A stretch of 64,000 nt of DNA from a virus. The notes under the pieces are model-generated. The model was not told where the DNA came from and did no database searches. It saw nothing but the letters and a program-made list of their open reading frames with translations. Positions 12,831 through 53,242 of this stretch are shown here, piece after piece; position 1 is the stretch's first letter, and each line of letters begins with the position of its first letter. The DNA lies in IMG/VR virus record IMGVR_UViG_3300020455_000014, positions 3,275-67,274 of that record, one strand, 5' to 3'. A program made the position numbers and the translations under genes.

Positions 12831-13215
12831 TCTTATACAACCTGTCGGTGATATTTTAGATAAAGTAATCCCTGACCAGGATCTAAAAAGGAAGCTGTCC
12901 CATGAGATAGCTACTATGTCTGAAAAACATGCCCAACAAGCTTTACTTGCTCAACTTGAAATAAATAAAGCAGAAGCAGCTTCTGGTAGCTTGTTTAAGG
13001 GTGGATGGAGACCCGCTGTGGGCTGGGTTTGCGCAATTGCTTTTATGTATCATTTTATCCTTAAAGATTTAATTATATTTGGTGCTGCATTTGCAGGAGT
13101 TGAATTACCTGAATTACCAGAATTTGATATGGGTACACTTTTAACCGTTCTCGGAGGTATGCTCGGAATCGGGGGACTTAGGACATATGAAAAGCAAAAA
13201 GGTTTAACAAAATAG
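12814..13215 (+). CDS. Holin (3-TM GTA-holin-like family)
   Basis: Probable TTG start at 12814 after GGAG; ILDKVIPD...GWRPAVGWVC...LGGMLGIGGLRTYEK family signature; directly upstream of the endolysin. Confidence 0.75.
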   Translation: MSLISSLIQPVGDILDKVIPDQDLKRKLSHEIATMSEKHAQQALLAQLEINKAEAASGSLFKGGWRPAVGWVCAIAFMYHFILKDLIIFGAAFAGVELPELPEFDMGTLLTVLGGMLGIGGLRTYEKQKGLTK

Positions 13216-13226
13216 GAGAAAGAATA

Positions 13227-13682
13227 ATGGCTTTCGCGCTAGGAAAAAACAGTTTATCAAAGTTATCTACAGTAGATAAACGACTGTGGACTATCTGCCA
13301 AGATGCTATAAAGATTACACGTATTGATTTTGGCGTGATTTGTGGGAAAAGAACACTCGCAGAACAAGAAGCCCTTTTGGCCAAGGGCGCGACCCAAACA
13401 ATGAAATCAAAACACCTTGATGGGTTAGCAGTTGATCTCATGGCATATATTAATGGCAGAGCTTCTTGGGAACTAAATTTGTACGATGATATTGCTGATG
13501 CAATGAAGGAAGCGTCACGTAAAAATGATATCCCTATACGATGGGGTGCAGCGTGGCATATAGATGATATAAGTAAATGGACTGAATCAATGGAAGATGC
13601 TATGAACTCCTATATTGACTTAAGACGTAGCCAAGGCAGGAGACCATTCATTGACGGACCCCACTTCGAGCTTACAGGATAA
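13227..13682 (+). CDS. Endolysin, M15-family L-Ala-D-Glu peptidase
   Basis: GxRT..EQ, SKHLDGLAVD (SxH-x6-D), WG..W and DGPHFEL Zn-peptidase motifs. Confidence 0.85.
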   Translation: MAFALGKNSLSKLSTVDKRLWTICQDAIKITRIDFGVICGKRTLAEQEALLAKGATQTMKSKHLDGLAVDLMAYINGRASWELNLYDDIADAMKEASRKNDIPIRWGAAWHIDDISKWTESMEDAMNSYIDLRRSQGRRPFIDGPHFELTG

Positions 13683-34767: not shown

Positions 34768-37498
34768 CTATACCTATCTTACAGTCTACTATAATAACAT
34801 TTGCTGGAGGTAAGTTAAGATGTGTTCCCTTACTTAGTCTAACCTTACCTCTAACAGCACCTAGTTTATCCCTTAAATCATTAGTAAAAGAACTATAATC
34901 TATTTGATGTGCTCCACACCATTTCTTCAATGGTTTTGGTAATAAAAATATTTTCTTTAAATCTGTTTCATACCTAGCTACTAATTCACCTCGTGGTACA
35001 GCTTCGGGTACAACAAGCGTGGAAGCATCTGCCCTCGCATCATCAGTGCTTTTTATCCATAAGACTTTACTATAATGCTCATGTATGTAGTCGTTTAATA
35101 CTTCTTCCACTGAAGCACCCATATCATTACTAGAATGAATATTCTTCTTTAATTGTTTGATAATAAACTGAAATAGTTTCTTAGTATCATAATCCACTAA
35201 GCCTAGTTTCTTAGCTATAATTATACCTGTCATAGAACAAGCACTTAACGCAGACCAAAATCTATTCTTTGCTGTAAGTCCCGCAACGGTATCAATTTTT
35301 ATTTGTACTTTTTTTAATAATTCTTTAGTGCCTTCTATATCATTAAGGATTGATTTAATGTATACTTTACCTGCATGTCCATAGTTACTATAGAGTAGAG
35401 AGTTAAATGCGTCTGTTTCCTCTTTTGTTTCAAACCTCATTTCTTTTGTTTTACATTCTAAGATTCTTTGTGCTTCTGCTTTTGGCATTGCTTTTTTCAG
35501 CCCTATCTTATCCACGATACTTAGATTGGCACTGGTTACCGCCAACAATTGCCAAGGAAGACCACGATATCGTTCAACGTTAGAACCTCCGCTCATACGA
35601 TTTCTTTGTCTACCATTTGTAAGTTGGTAAGCTAAATCACTTAAATGTGAAGAATCACTATTTGTTAATTCGTCTAATATTAATGGTAGGTTATGAAATA
35701 CCTCTGCCCTATTCATCATAGACGCGGCTGTATCTGCTACGTTACACATTAATTCTTTCGGATCACCCCACACAGATAAACATGCTTCTTGTACAGTAGA
35801 TTTTCCTATTCCTGTATCTCCATTTAAATGCAAAACTCCACAATGTAGAGTTGTAAATCTCATAAGGGGAGAACCGAATGCAGTTGCAAGTACAAACTGA
35901 TGTATTTCAAAGTTATCTCTATTATAAAAGTTTGCCATCTCTTTCCATTTTTCAAGGCTACCTTTTGGTTCAAAATGTTCTATGGTGCTTATAGTTTGAG
36001 TAGAAGGAGGGTTAGACTTTACACCATCTTTGGTTATCTCTTCTTTGCCTATAATAAATCTATCGTATGATTCACCTATCCACCCATATTGTTTATGAGC
36101 TATATCGGCTTCCCCTTGCAGTTGTAGTTCGTTTACCCAAGCTGTTGTATATGTCATAAGTTCATCCATCTTAGTTACTGCCACGCCCTGCATGGCCATG
36201 TGTTTTCTAAATTCTTCTCTTGATGTTACAGCAGTTAAAGGAACTGTAAACTCTCTAACACCATCTTTTGGTAGATGCAGTCGCATGACGACACCTTCTC
36301 CCGTTTCGGGATCTTTCAGTCTACTAACAACGTATAAGTCGTTATGGTATATTAACTTGTCCTCTGGATCGCCATCCGCATTGGAGTATCTCACATATAC
36401 TCCACCATTTTTACCTCTAAAATAAGGGGAAGGATACTTAGGTATATTACTTTTTATACCCAATGCTTCTTCTATTTCTTCATCTGATTCTTTTATTCTA
36501 GAGCCTAACACAAGAGGGGATTTTATCTTACCCCAAAAAGGACAACTAGGGCAGATGTCGGGGTTGTGTTGGTCAAACGTACTACAGAGATAAGGCCCCT
36601 CTATCCTGTTCATCTTATCTATTGTTTTTTCTTCTGAATACTCTGGATGTTTTTTTGATATATTTATTGATGCTTTATCTGCATCTACACAAAACTTTGC
36701 GATAGACAAACCACCTCTCCACAGTGGTTCACTTATAGTAGCTTGGTTTTTTATAATGTATTTTATCTGTTCGCAGCCGTTACCCTTTATTGTTCTTTGG
36801 AGAATACGCATAAATACATTCTCCATGTTATCATGTAATTTTTCTTTTGTAGCACTCGGAGGTAACTTTTCTTTTGTTGTTTCTATATTTCCAAGTGTGG
36901 CGGAGAAAGACTGAAAGACATGCGCCCCTTGTGTATTTCCTAACACCTTAACTTGTAATGGTGTGTTACCCTTGAAGTTGTGGGACCCTGGAACACGTAA
37001 AACCCTAGCACCATCAGAGGTCACGGCAGGGTCAGCTAATAAGTTATACTCTGCACATAATGATTTTAATTTTTCTGCTACAGGAAACCAATCTTTGTAT
37101 TCTACTTCTGTTTCTAAAGGCCAATAACAGTGCACTCCATTTCCAGAATCTACTATAACAGGTTTTGGTAACTTAACCTTCTGACAAAAATGTCGTAGGG
37201 CTGTCAAAGCTTCGCCTTTGTTTGGGTAATCTTTTGTTTCGCCACAATCTAAGTCAAGGAAGAAAGACTTTAGATATTGTATGTTATCTACCTTCCTTGA
37301 ACCATCTTCTTTAAAAGTGGCTAACGCATAAAATGTGTTATAATTATTACCGTCTAGATATTTAGTTTGTTCTATAGCTTCGTCTACTGACGAATAAAAT
37401 TTCTGTATAACCGAATCACCTTTGTATCCCCATACACAATATGATCCTTTGTTACTTAATACAGATTGTAAAAATTCTTTTGTTTCCATGATATCCAC
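34736..37498 (-). CDS. Primase-helicase (RepB/AEP-like primase N-terminus, DUF927-type P-loop helicase)
   Basis: FFLDLD, VDSGNGVHCYW and RVLRVPG primase motifs; CxxC; GDTGIGKS Walker A, LILDE Walker B; start probably ATG 37489. Confidence 0.8.
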   Translation of the reverse strand: MDIMETKEFLQSVLSNKGSYCVWGYKGDSVIQKFYSSVDEAIEQTKYLDGNNYNTFYALATFKEDGSRKVDNIQYLKSFFLDLDCGETKDYPNKGEALTALRHFCQKVKLPKPVIVDSGNGVHCYWPLETEVEYKDWFPVAEKLKSLCAEYNLLADPAVTSDGARVLRVPGSHNFKGNTPLQVKVLGNTQGAHVFQSFSATLGNIETTKEKLPPSATKEKLHDNMENVFMRILQRTIKGNGCEQIKYIIKNQATISEPLWRGGLSIAKFCVDADKASINISKKHPEYSEEKTIDKMNRIEGPYLCSTFDQHNPDICPSCPFWGKIKSPLVLGSRIKESDEEIEEALGIKSNIPKYPSPYFRGKNGGVYVRYSNADGDPEDKLIYHNDLYVVSRLKDPETGEGVVMRLHLPKDGVREFTVPLTAVTSREEFRKHMAMQGVAVTKMDELMTYTTAWVNELQLQGEADIAHKQYGWIGESYDRFIIGKEEITKDGVKSNPPSTQTISTIEHFEPKGSLEKWKEMANFYNRDNFEIHQFVLATAFGSPLMRFTTLHCGVLHLNGDTGIGKSTVQEACLSVWGDPKELMCNVADTAASMMNRAEVFHNLPLILDELTNSDSSHLSDLAYQLTNGRQRNRMSGGSNVERYRGLPWQLLAVTSANLSIVDKIGLKKAMPKAEAQRILECKTKEMRFETKEETDAFNSLLYSNYGHAGKVYIKSILNDIEGTKELLKKVQIKIDTVAGLTAKNRFWSALSACSMTGIIIAKKLGLVDYDTKKLFQFIIKQLKKNIHSSNDMGASVEEVLNDYIHEHYSKVLWIKSTDDARADASTLVVPEAVPRGELVARYETDLKKIFLLPKPLKKWCGAHQIDYSSFTNDLRDKLGAVRGKVRLSKGTHLNLPPANVIIVDCKIGIDDETGGTEEL

Positions 37499-37610: not shown

Positions 37611-38285
37611 CTAGTCATCCCAGTTGTCAACAATATCACTTAACTCATCATCAGTCTGTTGGTTGGGTGGTTTTACAGGATCAGACTTCTTGACAAGTTT
37701 CTTTGGTTCTTCGACTTTCTGTTCTTCTTGAAATGCGTTATCAAGATCAGCAGACGAATCGAAACCATCTTCCTCCTCAAATGGAGAAGGTTCTTCCATA
37801 GGAATATACTTTAATACTTGCACTGCCCTTAGTCTTAGGGAAACACCTGCTTCCCCTCTCATAAACCAAGGGTAAAAAGATACAAGTACGTTAACCTTAC
37901 TTCCAGTAGTTAGGAGAAAATCTACATCTAACTTATTACCTTTTGCATCATATTGTGATGGCTTTCTAGTAGCATCTTGTCCATAAGCACCCTTTAACCT
38001 AGCCTTACCTATGTACATACCATCTTCATCTTTTGCAAACGGCATCTTTAATTTTTCTGGCCAACCTTTTGCTTTCTTAGCCGTAAAAGATTTAGCCATT
38101 TCTTTGTATAACTCTTTGGCCTGTGATTCAGTCATTTTAAACTGCATGGAATACTCTGCTCCATCGTCAAAAGCACTACAAGTTACAGACCTATTTTCGG
38201 CACTATCAAACCTGTAAGTAGTATTTATTTTAGGCCATAAAGCTTCTACATTTTTTACTTTAAAATTTGCACTCATCTCTGCCAT
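37611..38285 (-). CDS. ssb: Single-stranded DNA-binding protein (T7 gp2.5-like fold)
   Basis: GSKVNV...GVSLRLRAVQVL motif, acidic tail ending DNWDD; replication module. Confidence 0.7.
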   Translation of the reverse strand: MAEMSANFKVKNVEALWPKINTTYRFDSAENRSVTCSAFDDGAEYSMQFKMTESQAKELYKEMAKSFTAKKAKGWPEKLKMPFAKDEDGMYIGKARLKGAYGQDATRKPSQYDAKGNKLDVDFLLTTGSKVNVLVSFYPWFMRGEAGVSLRLRAVQVLKYIPMEEPSPFEEEDGFDSSADLDNAFQEEQKVEEPKKLVKKSDPVKPPNQQTDDELSDIVDNWDD

Positions 38286-38296
38286 TCTCGATTCTC

Positions 38297-43447: not shown

Positions 43448-43566
43448 CAGTCTTTAAAAAAAGCTATATAAATGCAAAGACCAAGTATGATGAGTTTACC
43501 ATAATCTAAATCCCATTTAGTACCCTCACCAAACATATTATAATAATCTTCAATTTTCTTTCTCAT
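43447..43566 (-). CDS. Putative 39-aa membrane peptide (not in ORF track)
   Basis: MRKKIEDYYNMFGEGTKWDLDYGKLIILGLCIYIAFFKD; TGATG coupling to the polymerase start. Confidence 0.5.
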   Translation of the reverse strand: MRKKIEDYYNMFGEGTKWDLDYGKLIILGLCIYIAFFKD

Positions 43567-43735
43567 TTACCATCTCCTCTTTTGGTTGTGCCATTTGTTG
43601 GCAAGTTAATCCATTACAACAATCATCTACTACACTCATACAAATAATACATTGGTAATGACCATGTATTGGAATCATGCTCGTTTCTTGCCCACATCTA
43701 GGGCATATCGTTATTTGTTTTACCATGAAATTCAC
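43550..43735 (-). CDS. Small Cys-rich (zinc-ribbon-like) protein
   Basis: CPRC...HGHYQCIIC...DCCNG. Confidence 0.6.
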   Translation of the reverse strand: MNFMVKQITICPRCGQETSMIPIHGHYQCIICMSVVDDCCNGLTCQQMAQPKEEMVNEKEN

Positions 43736-43979
43736 CTCCTAATGCTCCGTATCCACAAATATCCACCCACGAATCTTCTTTATCGGAGTGTATTAACCTA
43801 GCCATTTTCATAGCTACCATACATAATATAACGTGTTTTACTGTTATCTCTCGCTCAAGGATGACACTCCACAAGTCAGCTATCCTTTTGTGATTAGTAT
43901 AAGCATCACCATAATCTTTGGCTCTATCACCATTAATTAGGCTCATTGCTACTTGTAATATATCATCTCTATTTTTCAT
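43698..43979 (-). CDS. DUF6378-like protein (related to phage nucleotide kinases)
   Basis: GDRAKDYGD...IADLWS...KMAR...DSWVDICGY. Confidence 0.7.
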   Translation of the reverse strand: MKNRDDILQVAMSLINGDRAKDYGDAYTNHKRIADLWSVILEREITVKHVILCMVAMKMARLIHSDKEDSWVDICGYGALGGEFHGKTNNDMP

Positions 43980-43999
43980 TTGTTCTCCCTTTTTATTTG

Positions 44000-44206
44000 C
44001 CCCTAGAGCTGATAATGAGCATTTGTAGATGCTCCCCTAGGGGACTAAGTTTATCGTACTTTCTCCGACAAGGTCAATAGTTGAAAGGAGTCAGACATGA
44101 ATACAATCTGCTAAAAAACTACCCCTTGTTGCAATGGTTATTCATATGTAAAGGCACTCATTGCTTACCCTTTTCGGAGGGGACAAACTAAAAAACCCCC
44201 GACTAG
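44000..44206 (-). ncRNA. Candidate ~205-nt structured RNA (four hairpins, predicted kissing loop)
   Basis: Non-coding gap with four consecutive stems; loop-loop complementarity AUGAAUA/UAUUCAU; strand inferred from the operon. Confidence 0.5.
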
Positions 44207-44211
44207 ACAAC

Positions 44212-44550
44212 TCATTGCATCATTTTGTAAACATCATCATAGTTAACTTCGCAAGTATTTCCTGCAACATGACCTATAATTATATCTACAATATTGTGCA
44301 TATTACTCTCGTTAACTACCAAAGCCATACCACCTGCCTTACTAATATCTCTTAAATTATTTTCTTGTAAAGCAGTTGGTTTATTTTTCCCTGCCTTACA
44401 CTCTAATGCTATAAAATATCCTTCATAACATAATACTATATCTGGAACGCCACTACCTCCGTACCCACCTGTGACGGGATAGAAATAGTATGCACCCATA
44501 GTTTTTAGGGCAGTTGTTACAACTTTTTTAACTTTTGCTTCTGGTTTCAA
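44212..44550 (-). CDS. VRR-NUC domain nuclease (Holliday-junction-resolvase-like)
   Basis: PEAKVK...SGVPDI...FIALECKA...PTALQ; probable TTG start at 44550. Confidence 0.85.
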   Translation of the reverse strand: MKPEAKVKKVVTTALKTMGAYYFYPVTGGYGGSGVPDIVLCYEGYFIALECKAGKNKPTALQENNLRDISKAGGMALVVNESNMHNIVDIIIGHVAGNTCEVNYDDVYKMMQ

Positions 44551-44702
44551 AATGGTATCTCCTCTCCTTCGTGTTTTGGTATCCAAACTTCGTATTTAGG
44601 TAGTGTATCATTACCTTGTTTTTCTGGTAAAGTTATTTCTTCAAGTATACCATACTCTCGCATAAACATTACCAAATCAAGAGGTAAATTATTTGTTTTC
44701 AT
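44547..44702 (-). CDS. 51-aa protein ending in EEIPF (not in ORF track)
   Basis: MKTNNLPLDLVMFMREYGILEEITLPEKQGNDTLPKYEVWIPKHEGEEIPF; overlaps both neighbours. Confidence 0.6.
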   Translation of the reverse strand: MKTNNLPLDLVMFMREYGILEEITLPEKQGNDTLPKYEVWIPKHEGEEIPF

Positions 44703-44991
44703 ATTTTTTAGTCACAATGCTACTGATAATGTTTGACATTCTTACAGACATTTTTGCATCATGCTTGTCAAAATATTCTTGTACTTCTCTCAAAGTCCAT
44801 AGGAGTACGTCTTCCCTTCTTTTTTCAAAAGCCTCTGCTCTTTCTTTTCTAGCTTTTACTCTTTCTAAATAAGTATTACGTTTAGTTTTTTGAGCTTTCT
44901 GTTCTTTATACTTTGTCAGAGCCTGTCTACCTATACCAAAGTAGCTAGCTTTCTTAATTGGTTTTAATTTAAATTCTTCTTCTATTGACAT
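44689..44991 (-). CDS. Hypothetical basic protein
   Basis: ATG 44991 with GAGGT RBS (MSIEEEF...). Confidence 0.55.
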   Translation of the reverse strand: MSIEEEFKLKPIKKASYFGIGRQALTKYKEQKAQKTKRNTYLERVKARKERAEAFEKRREDVLLWTLREVQEYFDKHDAKMSVRMSNIISSIVTKKYENK

Positions 44992-45024
44992 ATTACCTCG
45001 CTTATTTGTTGTTGGAACTGGTAT

Positions 45025-45056
45025 CAACCCACTCAACCGTGAGGTCAAGTGGGTTG
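45025..45056 (-). promoter_or_regulatory. 14-bp intergenic hairpin without U-tract (processing/regulatory site)
   Basis: CAACCCACUUGACC-ucac-GGUUGAGUGGGUUG, fully paired with two G-U pairs on the minus strand. Confidence 0.5.
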
Positions 45057-52422: not shown

Positions 52423-52450
52423 AAAAAAAAGGAGGGTTTTTACACCCTCC
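52423..52450 (-). terminator. Intrinsic terminator of ORF 52458..53171
   Basis: GGAGGGU-guaaaa-ACCCUCC followed by U8. Confidence 0.85.
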
Positions 52451-53171: not shown

Positions 53172-53242
53172 AGTATAATCCTTTCAAGATTATTAACACA
53201 AGTCCCACAACAACAGTTATTGTTATTGCGTCTTGATAAGTT

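Follow-up and report, generated by a model that had tools for sequence, protein, structure and literature searches.

The leader of the phage T4 gene 32 mRNA contains a pseudoknot through which the single-strand-binding protein (SSB) autoregulates its translation in cis. The aptamers of small pseudoknot riboswitches (preQ1-II, SAM-II, and similar classes) are compact H-type pseudoknots in which the first loop has 2 nt, the last loop is A-rich, and unpaired bases are invariant, and they are located close to the Shine-Dalgarno (SD) sequence. Bacillus EAR and HK022 put are structured RNAs within operons that are conserved whatever the flanking genes, and EAR is also pseudoknotted. The packaging RNA of phage phi29, which is approximately 120–170 nt long, is a phage RNA that works through loop-loop pairing.

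Here, we describe a locus in an uncultured marine phage of 67 kb. The window, i.e., the whole stretch of DNA that was analyzed, covers 64,000 bases of an IMG/VR virus record that is 67,274 bases long and is rated approximately 100% complete. Comparison with related sequences shows that a 232-bp gap (43980–44211) flanked by two minus-strand genes encodes a conserved structured RNA of approximately 200 nt (range, approximately 175–220 nt). In being a candidate leader of a replication module in which an H-type pseudoknot precedes an A-rich stretch and a ribosome-binding site, this element resembles the T4 gene 32 leader. Unlike in T4, the downstream gene is not an SSB gene (a minimal form of the element follows an SSB gene in relative L011), and the element is far larger, with many invariant bases and four more helices, which separate its pseudoknot from its A-rich linker. 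All of the features of preQ1-II and SAM-II mentioned above are also present here. However, the element differs from these aptamers in having no Rfam match, in its heterogeneous downstream genes, and in its restriction to phages, and no covarying alternative pairing was found. It resembles EAR and put in being a structured RNA apparently located within an operon and conserved whatever the flanking genes, but it has no sequence or model similarity to them, is tightly joined to a ribosome-binding site, and is followed in the operon by no strong intrinsic terminator-like site, only by two weaker matches. Like the phi29 packaging RNA, it is phage-encoded, and this genome has complementary loops; unlike in phi29, the loop-loop complementarity is not conserved, and the element lies in the replication module, fused to the SD sequence.

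In their main text, Fremin, Bhatt and Kyrpides (2023; PMC10690425) report 10,006 candidate structured RNAs of viruses from IMG/VR and cite the T4 gene 32 leader pseudoknot. Our element shares with the candidates described there the data source (IMG/VR) and the character of a covarying intergenic motif upstream of phage genes. No motif with this context was found in the main text of that paper, and its supplementary set of 10,006 candidates could include the element. No description of the motif was found in the literature searched, which included passages of two 2026 preprints. A search of the whole window against Rfam 15 at gathering thresholds gave no matches, and a search of 43900–44300 with E-values up to 10 gave three chance-level matches (mir-1993, U4, and STnc550; 11–17 bits against thresholds of 46–82). 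Core matches to small self-cleaving ribozymes (hammerhead, twister, pistol, hatchet, and HDV-like) were absent at E-values up to 10. Within Rfam 15 and this body of literature, the element matches no described RNA family, which agrees with a novel non-coding RNA as proposed in an earlier reading of the sequence alone (hereafter, the sequence-only reading).

Genomic setting

The gap is flanked by the following genes.

44212..44586, minus strand: upstream ORF of 124 aa, with a match to a phage endonuclease family and a weaker match to a Holliday-junction-resolvase family
43698..43979, minus strand: downstream DUF6378 ORF of 93 aa

All genes near the gap are on the minus strand. The DUF6378 gene is followed by two small ORFs, a family-A DNA polymerase, an exonuclease, a helicase, and a Gp2.5-like SSB, the gene of which is located 6 kb downstream of the RNA element. 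The element lies at the head of the DNA-replication genes, at the boundary with early-looking genes upstream. The minus strand was scanned for terminators between 33500 and 53000, with strong sites defined by at least seven pairs and a U-run directly after the stem. Strong terminator-like sites were found only at 52450–52431 and 33979–33955. Because these two sites flank an 18-kb block of minus-strand genes, the gap apparently lies within one long operon. Three weaker matches are present inside the block; those downstream of the element and before 33979 are at 35852–35834 and 36534–36517. The hairpin at 52431–52450 also scores as terminator-like on the plus strand. A good promoter-like site on the minus strand (51873–51845; TTGACA-17-TACTAT with an upstream TG) is located just inside the upstream end of the block. 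A scan for tRNA and tmRNA found none.

A DNA search of 50,697 phage records gave no matches, and the DNA polymerases of the nearest cultured phages are at best approximately 35% identical. The same phage DNA is present in marine metagenome runs from 6 coded studies, although 5 of the 14 DNA runs, which are the sole runs of one of these studies, may be the window's own source.

Conserved structure and covariation

Related loci were collected with the DUF6378 protein (80 loci) and the endonuclease (80 loci) as queries. Approximately 175 nt of the gap is conserved 3' of the endonuclease gene, even where the following gene differs. A two-block DNA pattern gave 32 further stretches. A short pattern (TGAYCTTGTCG...ACG), which occurred in at least 116 stretches with four profile matches among those listed, was replaced by the longer two-block patterns. 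Alignment A1 contains 41 of the 44 distinct trimmed instances and omits the exact duplicates L292 and L247 as well as L153, the 3' half of which is different. The parts of the element, read 5' to 3' on the minus strand, are as follows.

44174..44202, minus strand: H0, an optional hairpin (UCGGGGG/CCUCCGA) with a U-rich 15-nt loop, from the sequence
44150..44172, minus strand: P2 stem (44172–44167 with 44155–44150), from covariation
44131..44164, minus strand: PK1, GCAAUG-(A bulge)-GU (44164–44156) with AC-CAUUGC (44138–44131), from covariation
44149–44139, minus strand: L3 linker of the pseudoknot
44129–44124 with 44073–44068, minus strand: P4, which starts one base after the pseudoknot
44123–44117 with 44082–44076, minus strand: P3, with a variable apical part and an inner hairpin (CAGA/UCUG)
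44091–44083, minus strand: CU-rich tract ACUCCUUUC in the top of P3
44075–44074, minus strand: GA bulge between P4 and P3
44067–44066 with 44056–44055, minus strand: PK2, a tentative 2-bp pairing of CG with the CG of the P6 loop
44061–44058 with 44050–44047, minus strand: P6 hairpin with loop ACGAUAA, from RNAalifold and covariation
43999..44045, minus strand: P5, with closing pair G44045–C43999, bulged U44044, and CCCCUAG/CUAGGGG, from covariation
43977..43998, minus strand: A-rich linker, SD sequence GGGAG (43989–43985), and AUG (43979–43977) of the DUF6378 gene

The minimum free energy of the minus strand is -62.2 kcal/mol (z = -1.41), and 19 of 200 shuffled sequences fold as well; the corresponding values for the plus strand are -52.2 kcal/mol and z = -0.75. 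Since the single-sequence fold is not above chance, the reality of the stems rests only on covariation in relatives. In A1, the 37 proposed pairs are 97.1% paired over the 41 distinct sequences, compared with 77.4 ± 0.7% after column shuffling and 35–49% when the partners are slid. Compensatory changes, in which both sides have changed, are present in 28 of the 37 pairs. None of 500 shuffles reached the observed pairing or covariation score. Shuffle tests are inflated when sequences are related, as they are here, but both the slid controls and the variety of pair types found at each position support a real covariation signal.

A held-out pattern, in which only the conserved PK1 letters and their flanks were fixed and three pairing positions were left free, gave 47 stretches. 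Among the new distinct stretches, 33 of 34 have all six core PK1 pairs complementary, and the remaining one has three of six, which corresponds to chance. Alignment of 35 distinct rows from this pattern to the model (A2) gave 97.5% pairing and 27 pairs with compensatory changes. These figures include PK1, P6, and the closing pair of P5, which the structure of the model lacked. The A2 columns of P2, P4, P3, and P5 were placed by fitting to the model and are biased in its favor.

P2 and PK1 form an H-type pseudoknot. The loop of P2 is AA-GCAAUGAGU, and its bases constitute the 5' strand of PK1. In the alignment consensus, the loop reads AA-GCNGUG-A-GW and its downstream partner WC-CACNGC. In this pseudoknot, the first loop is 2 nt long, an A is bulged, and PK1 adjoins the 3' strand of P2 without an intervening base. 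The eight pairs of PK1 are 100% paired in both the 41 rows of A1 and the 35 rows of A2, with six and five compensatory pairs, respectively, and one position shows all four Watson-Crick types. The four innermost pairs of P2 are 96.3% paired in A1, where three of the four are compensatory, and 95.7% in A2. In P4/P3, the 13 pairs are 94.1% (A1) and 95.2% (A2) paired, 12 of them with compensatory changes; an invariant G-U pair follows the GA bulge and precedes P3, and the CU-rich tract is present in all 41 rows. The four pairs of P6 are 96.3% paired, three being compensatory.

PK2 is probably a second pseudoknot of 2 bp. Its pairs are 100% paired and the CG at 44067–44066 is invariant, but the support is weak because the only change, from GC to AU in four rows, is confined to a single lineage. 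We also considered a small hairpin, "Ps" (C44067–G44055, G44066–C44056, and G44065–U44058); it was rejected in favor of P6, which has much stronger covariation, and its two CG pairs were kept as PK2.

The six pairs of P5 are 99.6% paired in A1 and 98.3% in A2, with three compensatory pairs, an invariant G-C closing pair, and invariant C and G runs. Its loop and insert are hypervariable. The inner hairpin (44034–44029 with 44022–44017) is lineage-specific: an insert of approximately 28 nt with its own hairpin is present in this phage and L004, whereas the closest other relatives, L002 and L005, have a 10-nt loop, and RNA-library contigs of relatives carry the short form. P5 ends 4–19 nt before a strong SD sequence. 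In total, approximately 25 unpaired bases of the element are invariant or nearly so. Within P5, CCCCTAGGGG (44034–44043) is a perfect 10-bp palindrome, which occurs once in the window, not above chance frequency.

H0 is located directly 3' of the upstream stop codon (44214–44212). H0-like hairpins with different stems and a U-rich loop are found upstream in approximately 25 of 75 distinct members (crude detection, by eye); in other clades such a hairpin is located inside the L3 linker, and in others it is absent (by eye).

The sequence-only reading had drawn four stems, all of which are present when read on the minus strand: CCCCUAG/CUAGGGG (44043–44037 with 44006–44000) with an inner GAGCAU/AUGCUC, stacked helices at 44129–44068 with ACUCCUUUC as an internal loop (44091–44083), GCAAUG (44164–44159) with CAUUGC (44136–44131), and a hairpin at 44202–44174. 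All four helices exist, but the third is not a simple hairpin. Because P2 is present, GCAAUG/CAUUGC becomes the second stem of the H-type pseudoknot. P2, P6, and the direct run into the ribosome-binding site of the next gene were absent from that drawing. The general proposal of a tertiary-structured RNA agrees with the pseudoknot pairing and the covariation conserved in relatives, whereas its specific tertiary contact, a kissing loop, does not. In this genome, AUGAAUA (44145–44139) and UAUUCAU (44103–44097) are indeed complementary, and the complementarity extends to a 9-bp run, which 3% of shuffles reach. However, the run falls from 9 bp to 6 bp in the closest relatives (L004, L002, and L005; 92–96% identical) because three positions of L3 are substituted without compensation, and a loop-loop run at p ≤ 0.05 against shuffles is seen in only 3 of 36 distinct members. 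The duplicated 9-mer and 8-mer that had been noted are also present, but the alternative folds suggested from them are unsupported, and the words are not kept in relatives. A suggested trans pairing of UCCUUUCAA with UUGAAAGGA at a distant ribosome-binding site near 53179 is at chance level; the UUGAAAGGA 9-mer is found three times in the window, where 1.1 occurrences are expected, and 11 of 100 shuffled sequences contain as many. The sequence of the CU-rich tract varies between relatives.

Strand and coding potential

The gene-sense strand is paired in 1462 of 1506 cells, compared with 1300 of 1506 for the opposite strand. The pairing is strand-specific owing to G-U pairs, which make up 176 of the 1506 cells, and the alignment thus identifies the minus (gene-sense) strand as the functional one. 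The members are 160–215 nt long, and their length differences are non-multiples of three. In 39 of 41 rows, each of the three frames contains stop codons, in line with the non-coding assignment of the sequence-only reading.

If the region were conserved as a DNA-level site (promoter, operator, or origin) or as a small peptide rather than for RNA structure, the candidates would be a sigma-70-like TTGACC-18-TAAACT on the minus strand (44077–44048) and a short ORF overlapping the upstream stop codon, with a length of 24 aa in this phage and 41 aa in its closest relatives. The "-35" hexamer coincides with the 3' strand of P4 and covaries with its 5' partner, P4 and P6 together explain the promoter-like match, and relatives do not retain the -10-like hexamer. 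Beyond the closest relatives, the short ORF is lost or altered, and a conserved peptide is ruled out by this loss and by the all-frame stops. Given also the strand-specific G-U pairs, this explanation is hardly tenable; the compensatory changes in the alignments largely refute it, and we regard it as nearly excluded.

Distribution and variants

Exactly one copy of the element is present in the window and in the whole record, and one is present in each of five other phage genomes, so that all six phage genomes (53–70 kb, CheckV completeness 82–100%) are single-copy. Among 185,579 bacterial and archaeal genomes, a stringent pattern matched a single stretch, which is in a Leclercia contig. This stretch was rejected as chance: it has mismatches at both of the free pseudoknot positions, overlaps the start of a coding region, and gives only an 8-bit partial model match. 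As far as these searches indicate, the element is restricted to phages, namely a group of uncultured marine ones.

A minimal form in L007–L012 and their relatives is reduced to H0, the pseudoknot, and one 11-bp hairpin whose loop is CU-rich, after which come a U-rich stretch and the SD sequence; this form lacks P6 and P5. Distant full-length forms (L113 and L123, and L115 by eye) have the same architecture with different helix sequences. The model matches in L108 and L111 (16 bits) have only a P5-like end in common with the element. Weak model matches also occur within the window, at 38133–38292 (minus strand, 11 bits, E = 0.045) and 13198–13229 (6 bits). The former is full-length and overlaps the start of the Gp2.5-like SSB gene; it is probably due to chance.

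Function and alternative explanations

In every member, the element begins 0–45 nt past the upstream stop codon and ends at the SD sequence and AUG, and it is thus physically linked to a ribosome-binding site. The gene upstream varies (endonuclease, SSB, or small ORFs), as does the gene downstream, which encodes DUF6378, zinc-ribbon proteins, an SPFH-like membrane protein (by eye), a putative exonuclease, or others. The stretch from P5 through the linker to the SD sequence is conserved in relatives with a different downstream gene. Because the flanking genes change while this stretch travels with the element, cis action is favored, and so it is by the single copy at the entry to the replication genes. 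The occurrence of strong terminator-like sites only at the borders of the block fits an element inside a long operon. RNA-library data, at the level of assembled contigs, cover the region, and one contig spans both flanking genes; this bridging contig is weak support because DNA carry-over is possible. The contig break in run X15 falls in the hypervariable P5 and is uninformative.

We give an even chance to the possibility that the element is a cis-acting leader controlling the downstream replication-gene block, where both the cis action and the regulation are what we infer from this arrangement. Such an element would act in cis on the transcript carrying it. The pseudoknot domain would be the sensing or folding core, and P4/P3 and P5 would set the translation or mRNA lifetime of the downstream cistron and hence of the replication block. 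The trigger could be a small molecule, a protein of the phage or its host, or a processing event. Against cis-regulation, the immediate downstream genes do not belong to one functional family, and the tight spacing to both neighbors may be mere phage genome compaction. Pairing of the CU-rich tract with the SD sequence has a mean energy of -9.2 kcal/mol, compared with -8.6 kcal/mol for shuffled tracts (2 of 36 at p ≤ 0.05), and is not better than with the tracts of other members (-9.6 kcal/mol). The predicted accessibility of the SD sequence is 0.42 on average, compared with 0.41 when the upstream sequence is shuffled, and is higher in 22 of 41 members, with some imperfect SD picks among them.

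The element may be a switch, as suggested by the sequence-only reading. An all-against-all scan of the well-aligned columns detected no further covarying helix and no mutually exclusive one. In common with riboswitches, the element has an aptamer-like fold with covariation and invariant unpaired bases; an association with genes of one pathway or function was not found when the first downstream genes were compared. Heterogeneous downstream genes are unusual for a metabolite riboswitch. It is unlikely, in our estimation, that the element represents a new phage-only riboswitch or ribozyme class, in which a pseudoknot sensor at the first ribosome-binding site of the replication block would time the expression of the replication genes in response to an intracellular signal, for example the nucleotide pool or a host signalling nucleotide.

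Self-cleaving ribozymes occur in phage genomes, and the element might instead cut the polycistronic mRNA, either as such a ribozyme or as a site for a host endonuclease, leaving P5 as a 5' stabilizer of the replication message. The approximately 25 (near-)invariant unpaired bases and the two pseudoknots correspond to the conservation level of catalytic RNAs, an invariant UAG is located just 5' of the GC-rich hairpin preceding the SD sequence, and the flanking genes vary. We nevertheless consider processing quite unlikely, given the lack of any match to the ribozyme families of Rfam 15 at E-values up to 10, the minimal form without P6 and P5, and the single copy, orientation, and genomic position per genome, as known small ribozymes are scattered in genomes. 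The element is also much larger than the small self-cleaving classes. The element occurs once per genome, always in the same position within the replication module and irrespective of the neighboring genes, which would suit a stand-alone non-coding RNA acting in trans or on DNA, such as an origin primer or R-loop RNA or a protein decoy or scaffold; the family-A DNA polymerase encoded by the phage and the invariant C and G runs of P5 point in the same direction. Against this, the element has no terminator after it and runs directly into a conserved SD sequence and start codon, no promoter is conserved upstream, the upstream stop codon lies inside P2 in several clades, and the internal promoter-like match is accounted for by P4 and P6 as described above. 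This reading is likewise quite improbable.

By analogy with HK022 put and with EAR, which is likewise intercistronic and pseudoknotted, the element could be a processive antitermination RNA that would modify the RNA polymerase transcribing it and allow read-through to the replication genes. Its position in the operon, at the boundary between early-looking and replication genes, and the hairpin and U-rich stretch directly after the pseudoknot in the minimal form are compatible with this mechanism. However, the simple scan, which does not reach Rho-dependent sites, found only the two weaker terminator-like sites, and no strong one, from 43977 to 33979 on the minus strand, and Rfam gave no match to known antiterminator RNAs; we consider antitermination very unlikely.

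RNAs with such covariation, two pseudoknots, and approximately 25 fixed unpaired bases are rarely passive, and past orphans of this quality have been riboswitches, ribozymes, or protein-recruiting RNAs. The element is confined to uncultured marine phages of a widespread group and marks the entry to the replication genes. If it is a regulator, it would give access to replication timing in such phages when no host is in culture; a catalytic or ligand-binding function would make it a new RNA class. In either case, the alignment and model constitute a defined, testable object.

Genes adjacent to the element

A 51-aa ORF (44547–44702, minus strand), which overlaps the start of the endonuclease gene, has the C-terminus ...EEIPF, which resembles the acidic tip at the C-terminus of bacterial SSB. 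The position immediately upstream of the RNA element is occupied in relative L011 by a full-length SSB with the ending ...DDDEIPF. On the basis of this tail, the 51-aa ORF may be a mimic or remnant of an SSB tail. Zinc-ribbon-like small proteins (CxxC...CxxC) are repeatedly encoded beside the RNA. The copy in the window (43550–43735, minus strand) follows the DUF6378 gene; in the L311 and L301 clades, a zinc-ribbon protein is encoded by the first gene 3' of the RNA, and in L113 it is encoded upstream. These proteins are possible RNA- or DNA-binding partners of the element. A 119-aa gene (MSIEEEFKLK...; 44689–45048, minus strand) is located upstream of the RNA here, whereas its homolog is directly downstream in the relatives compared (L006, L031, and L019). 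The presence of this gene on opposite sides of the RNA indicates that the element kept its position while genes shifted from one side of it to the other.
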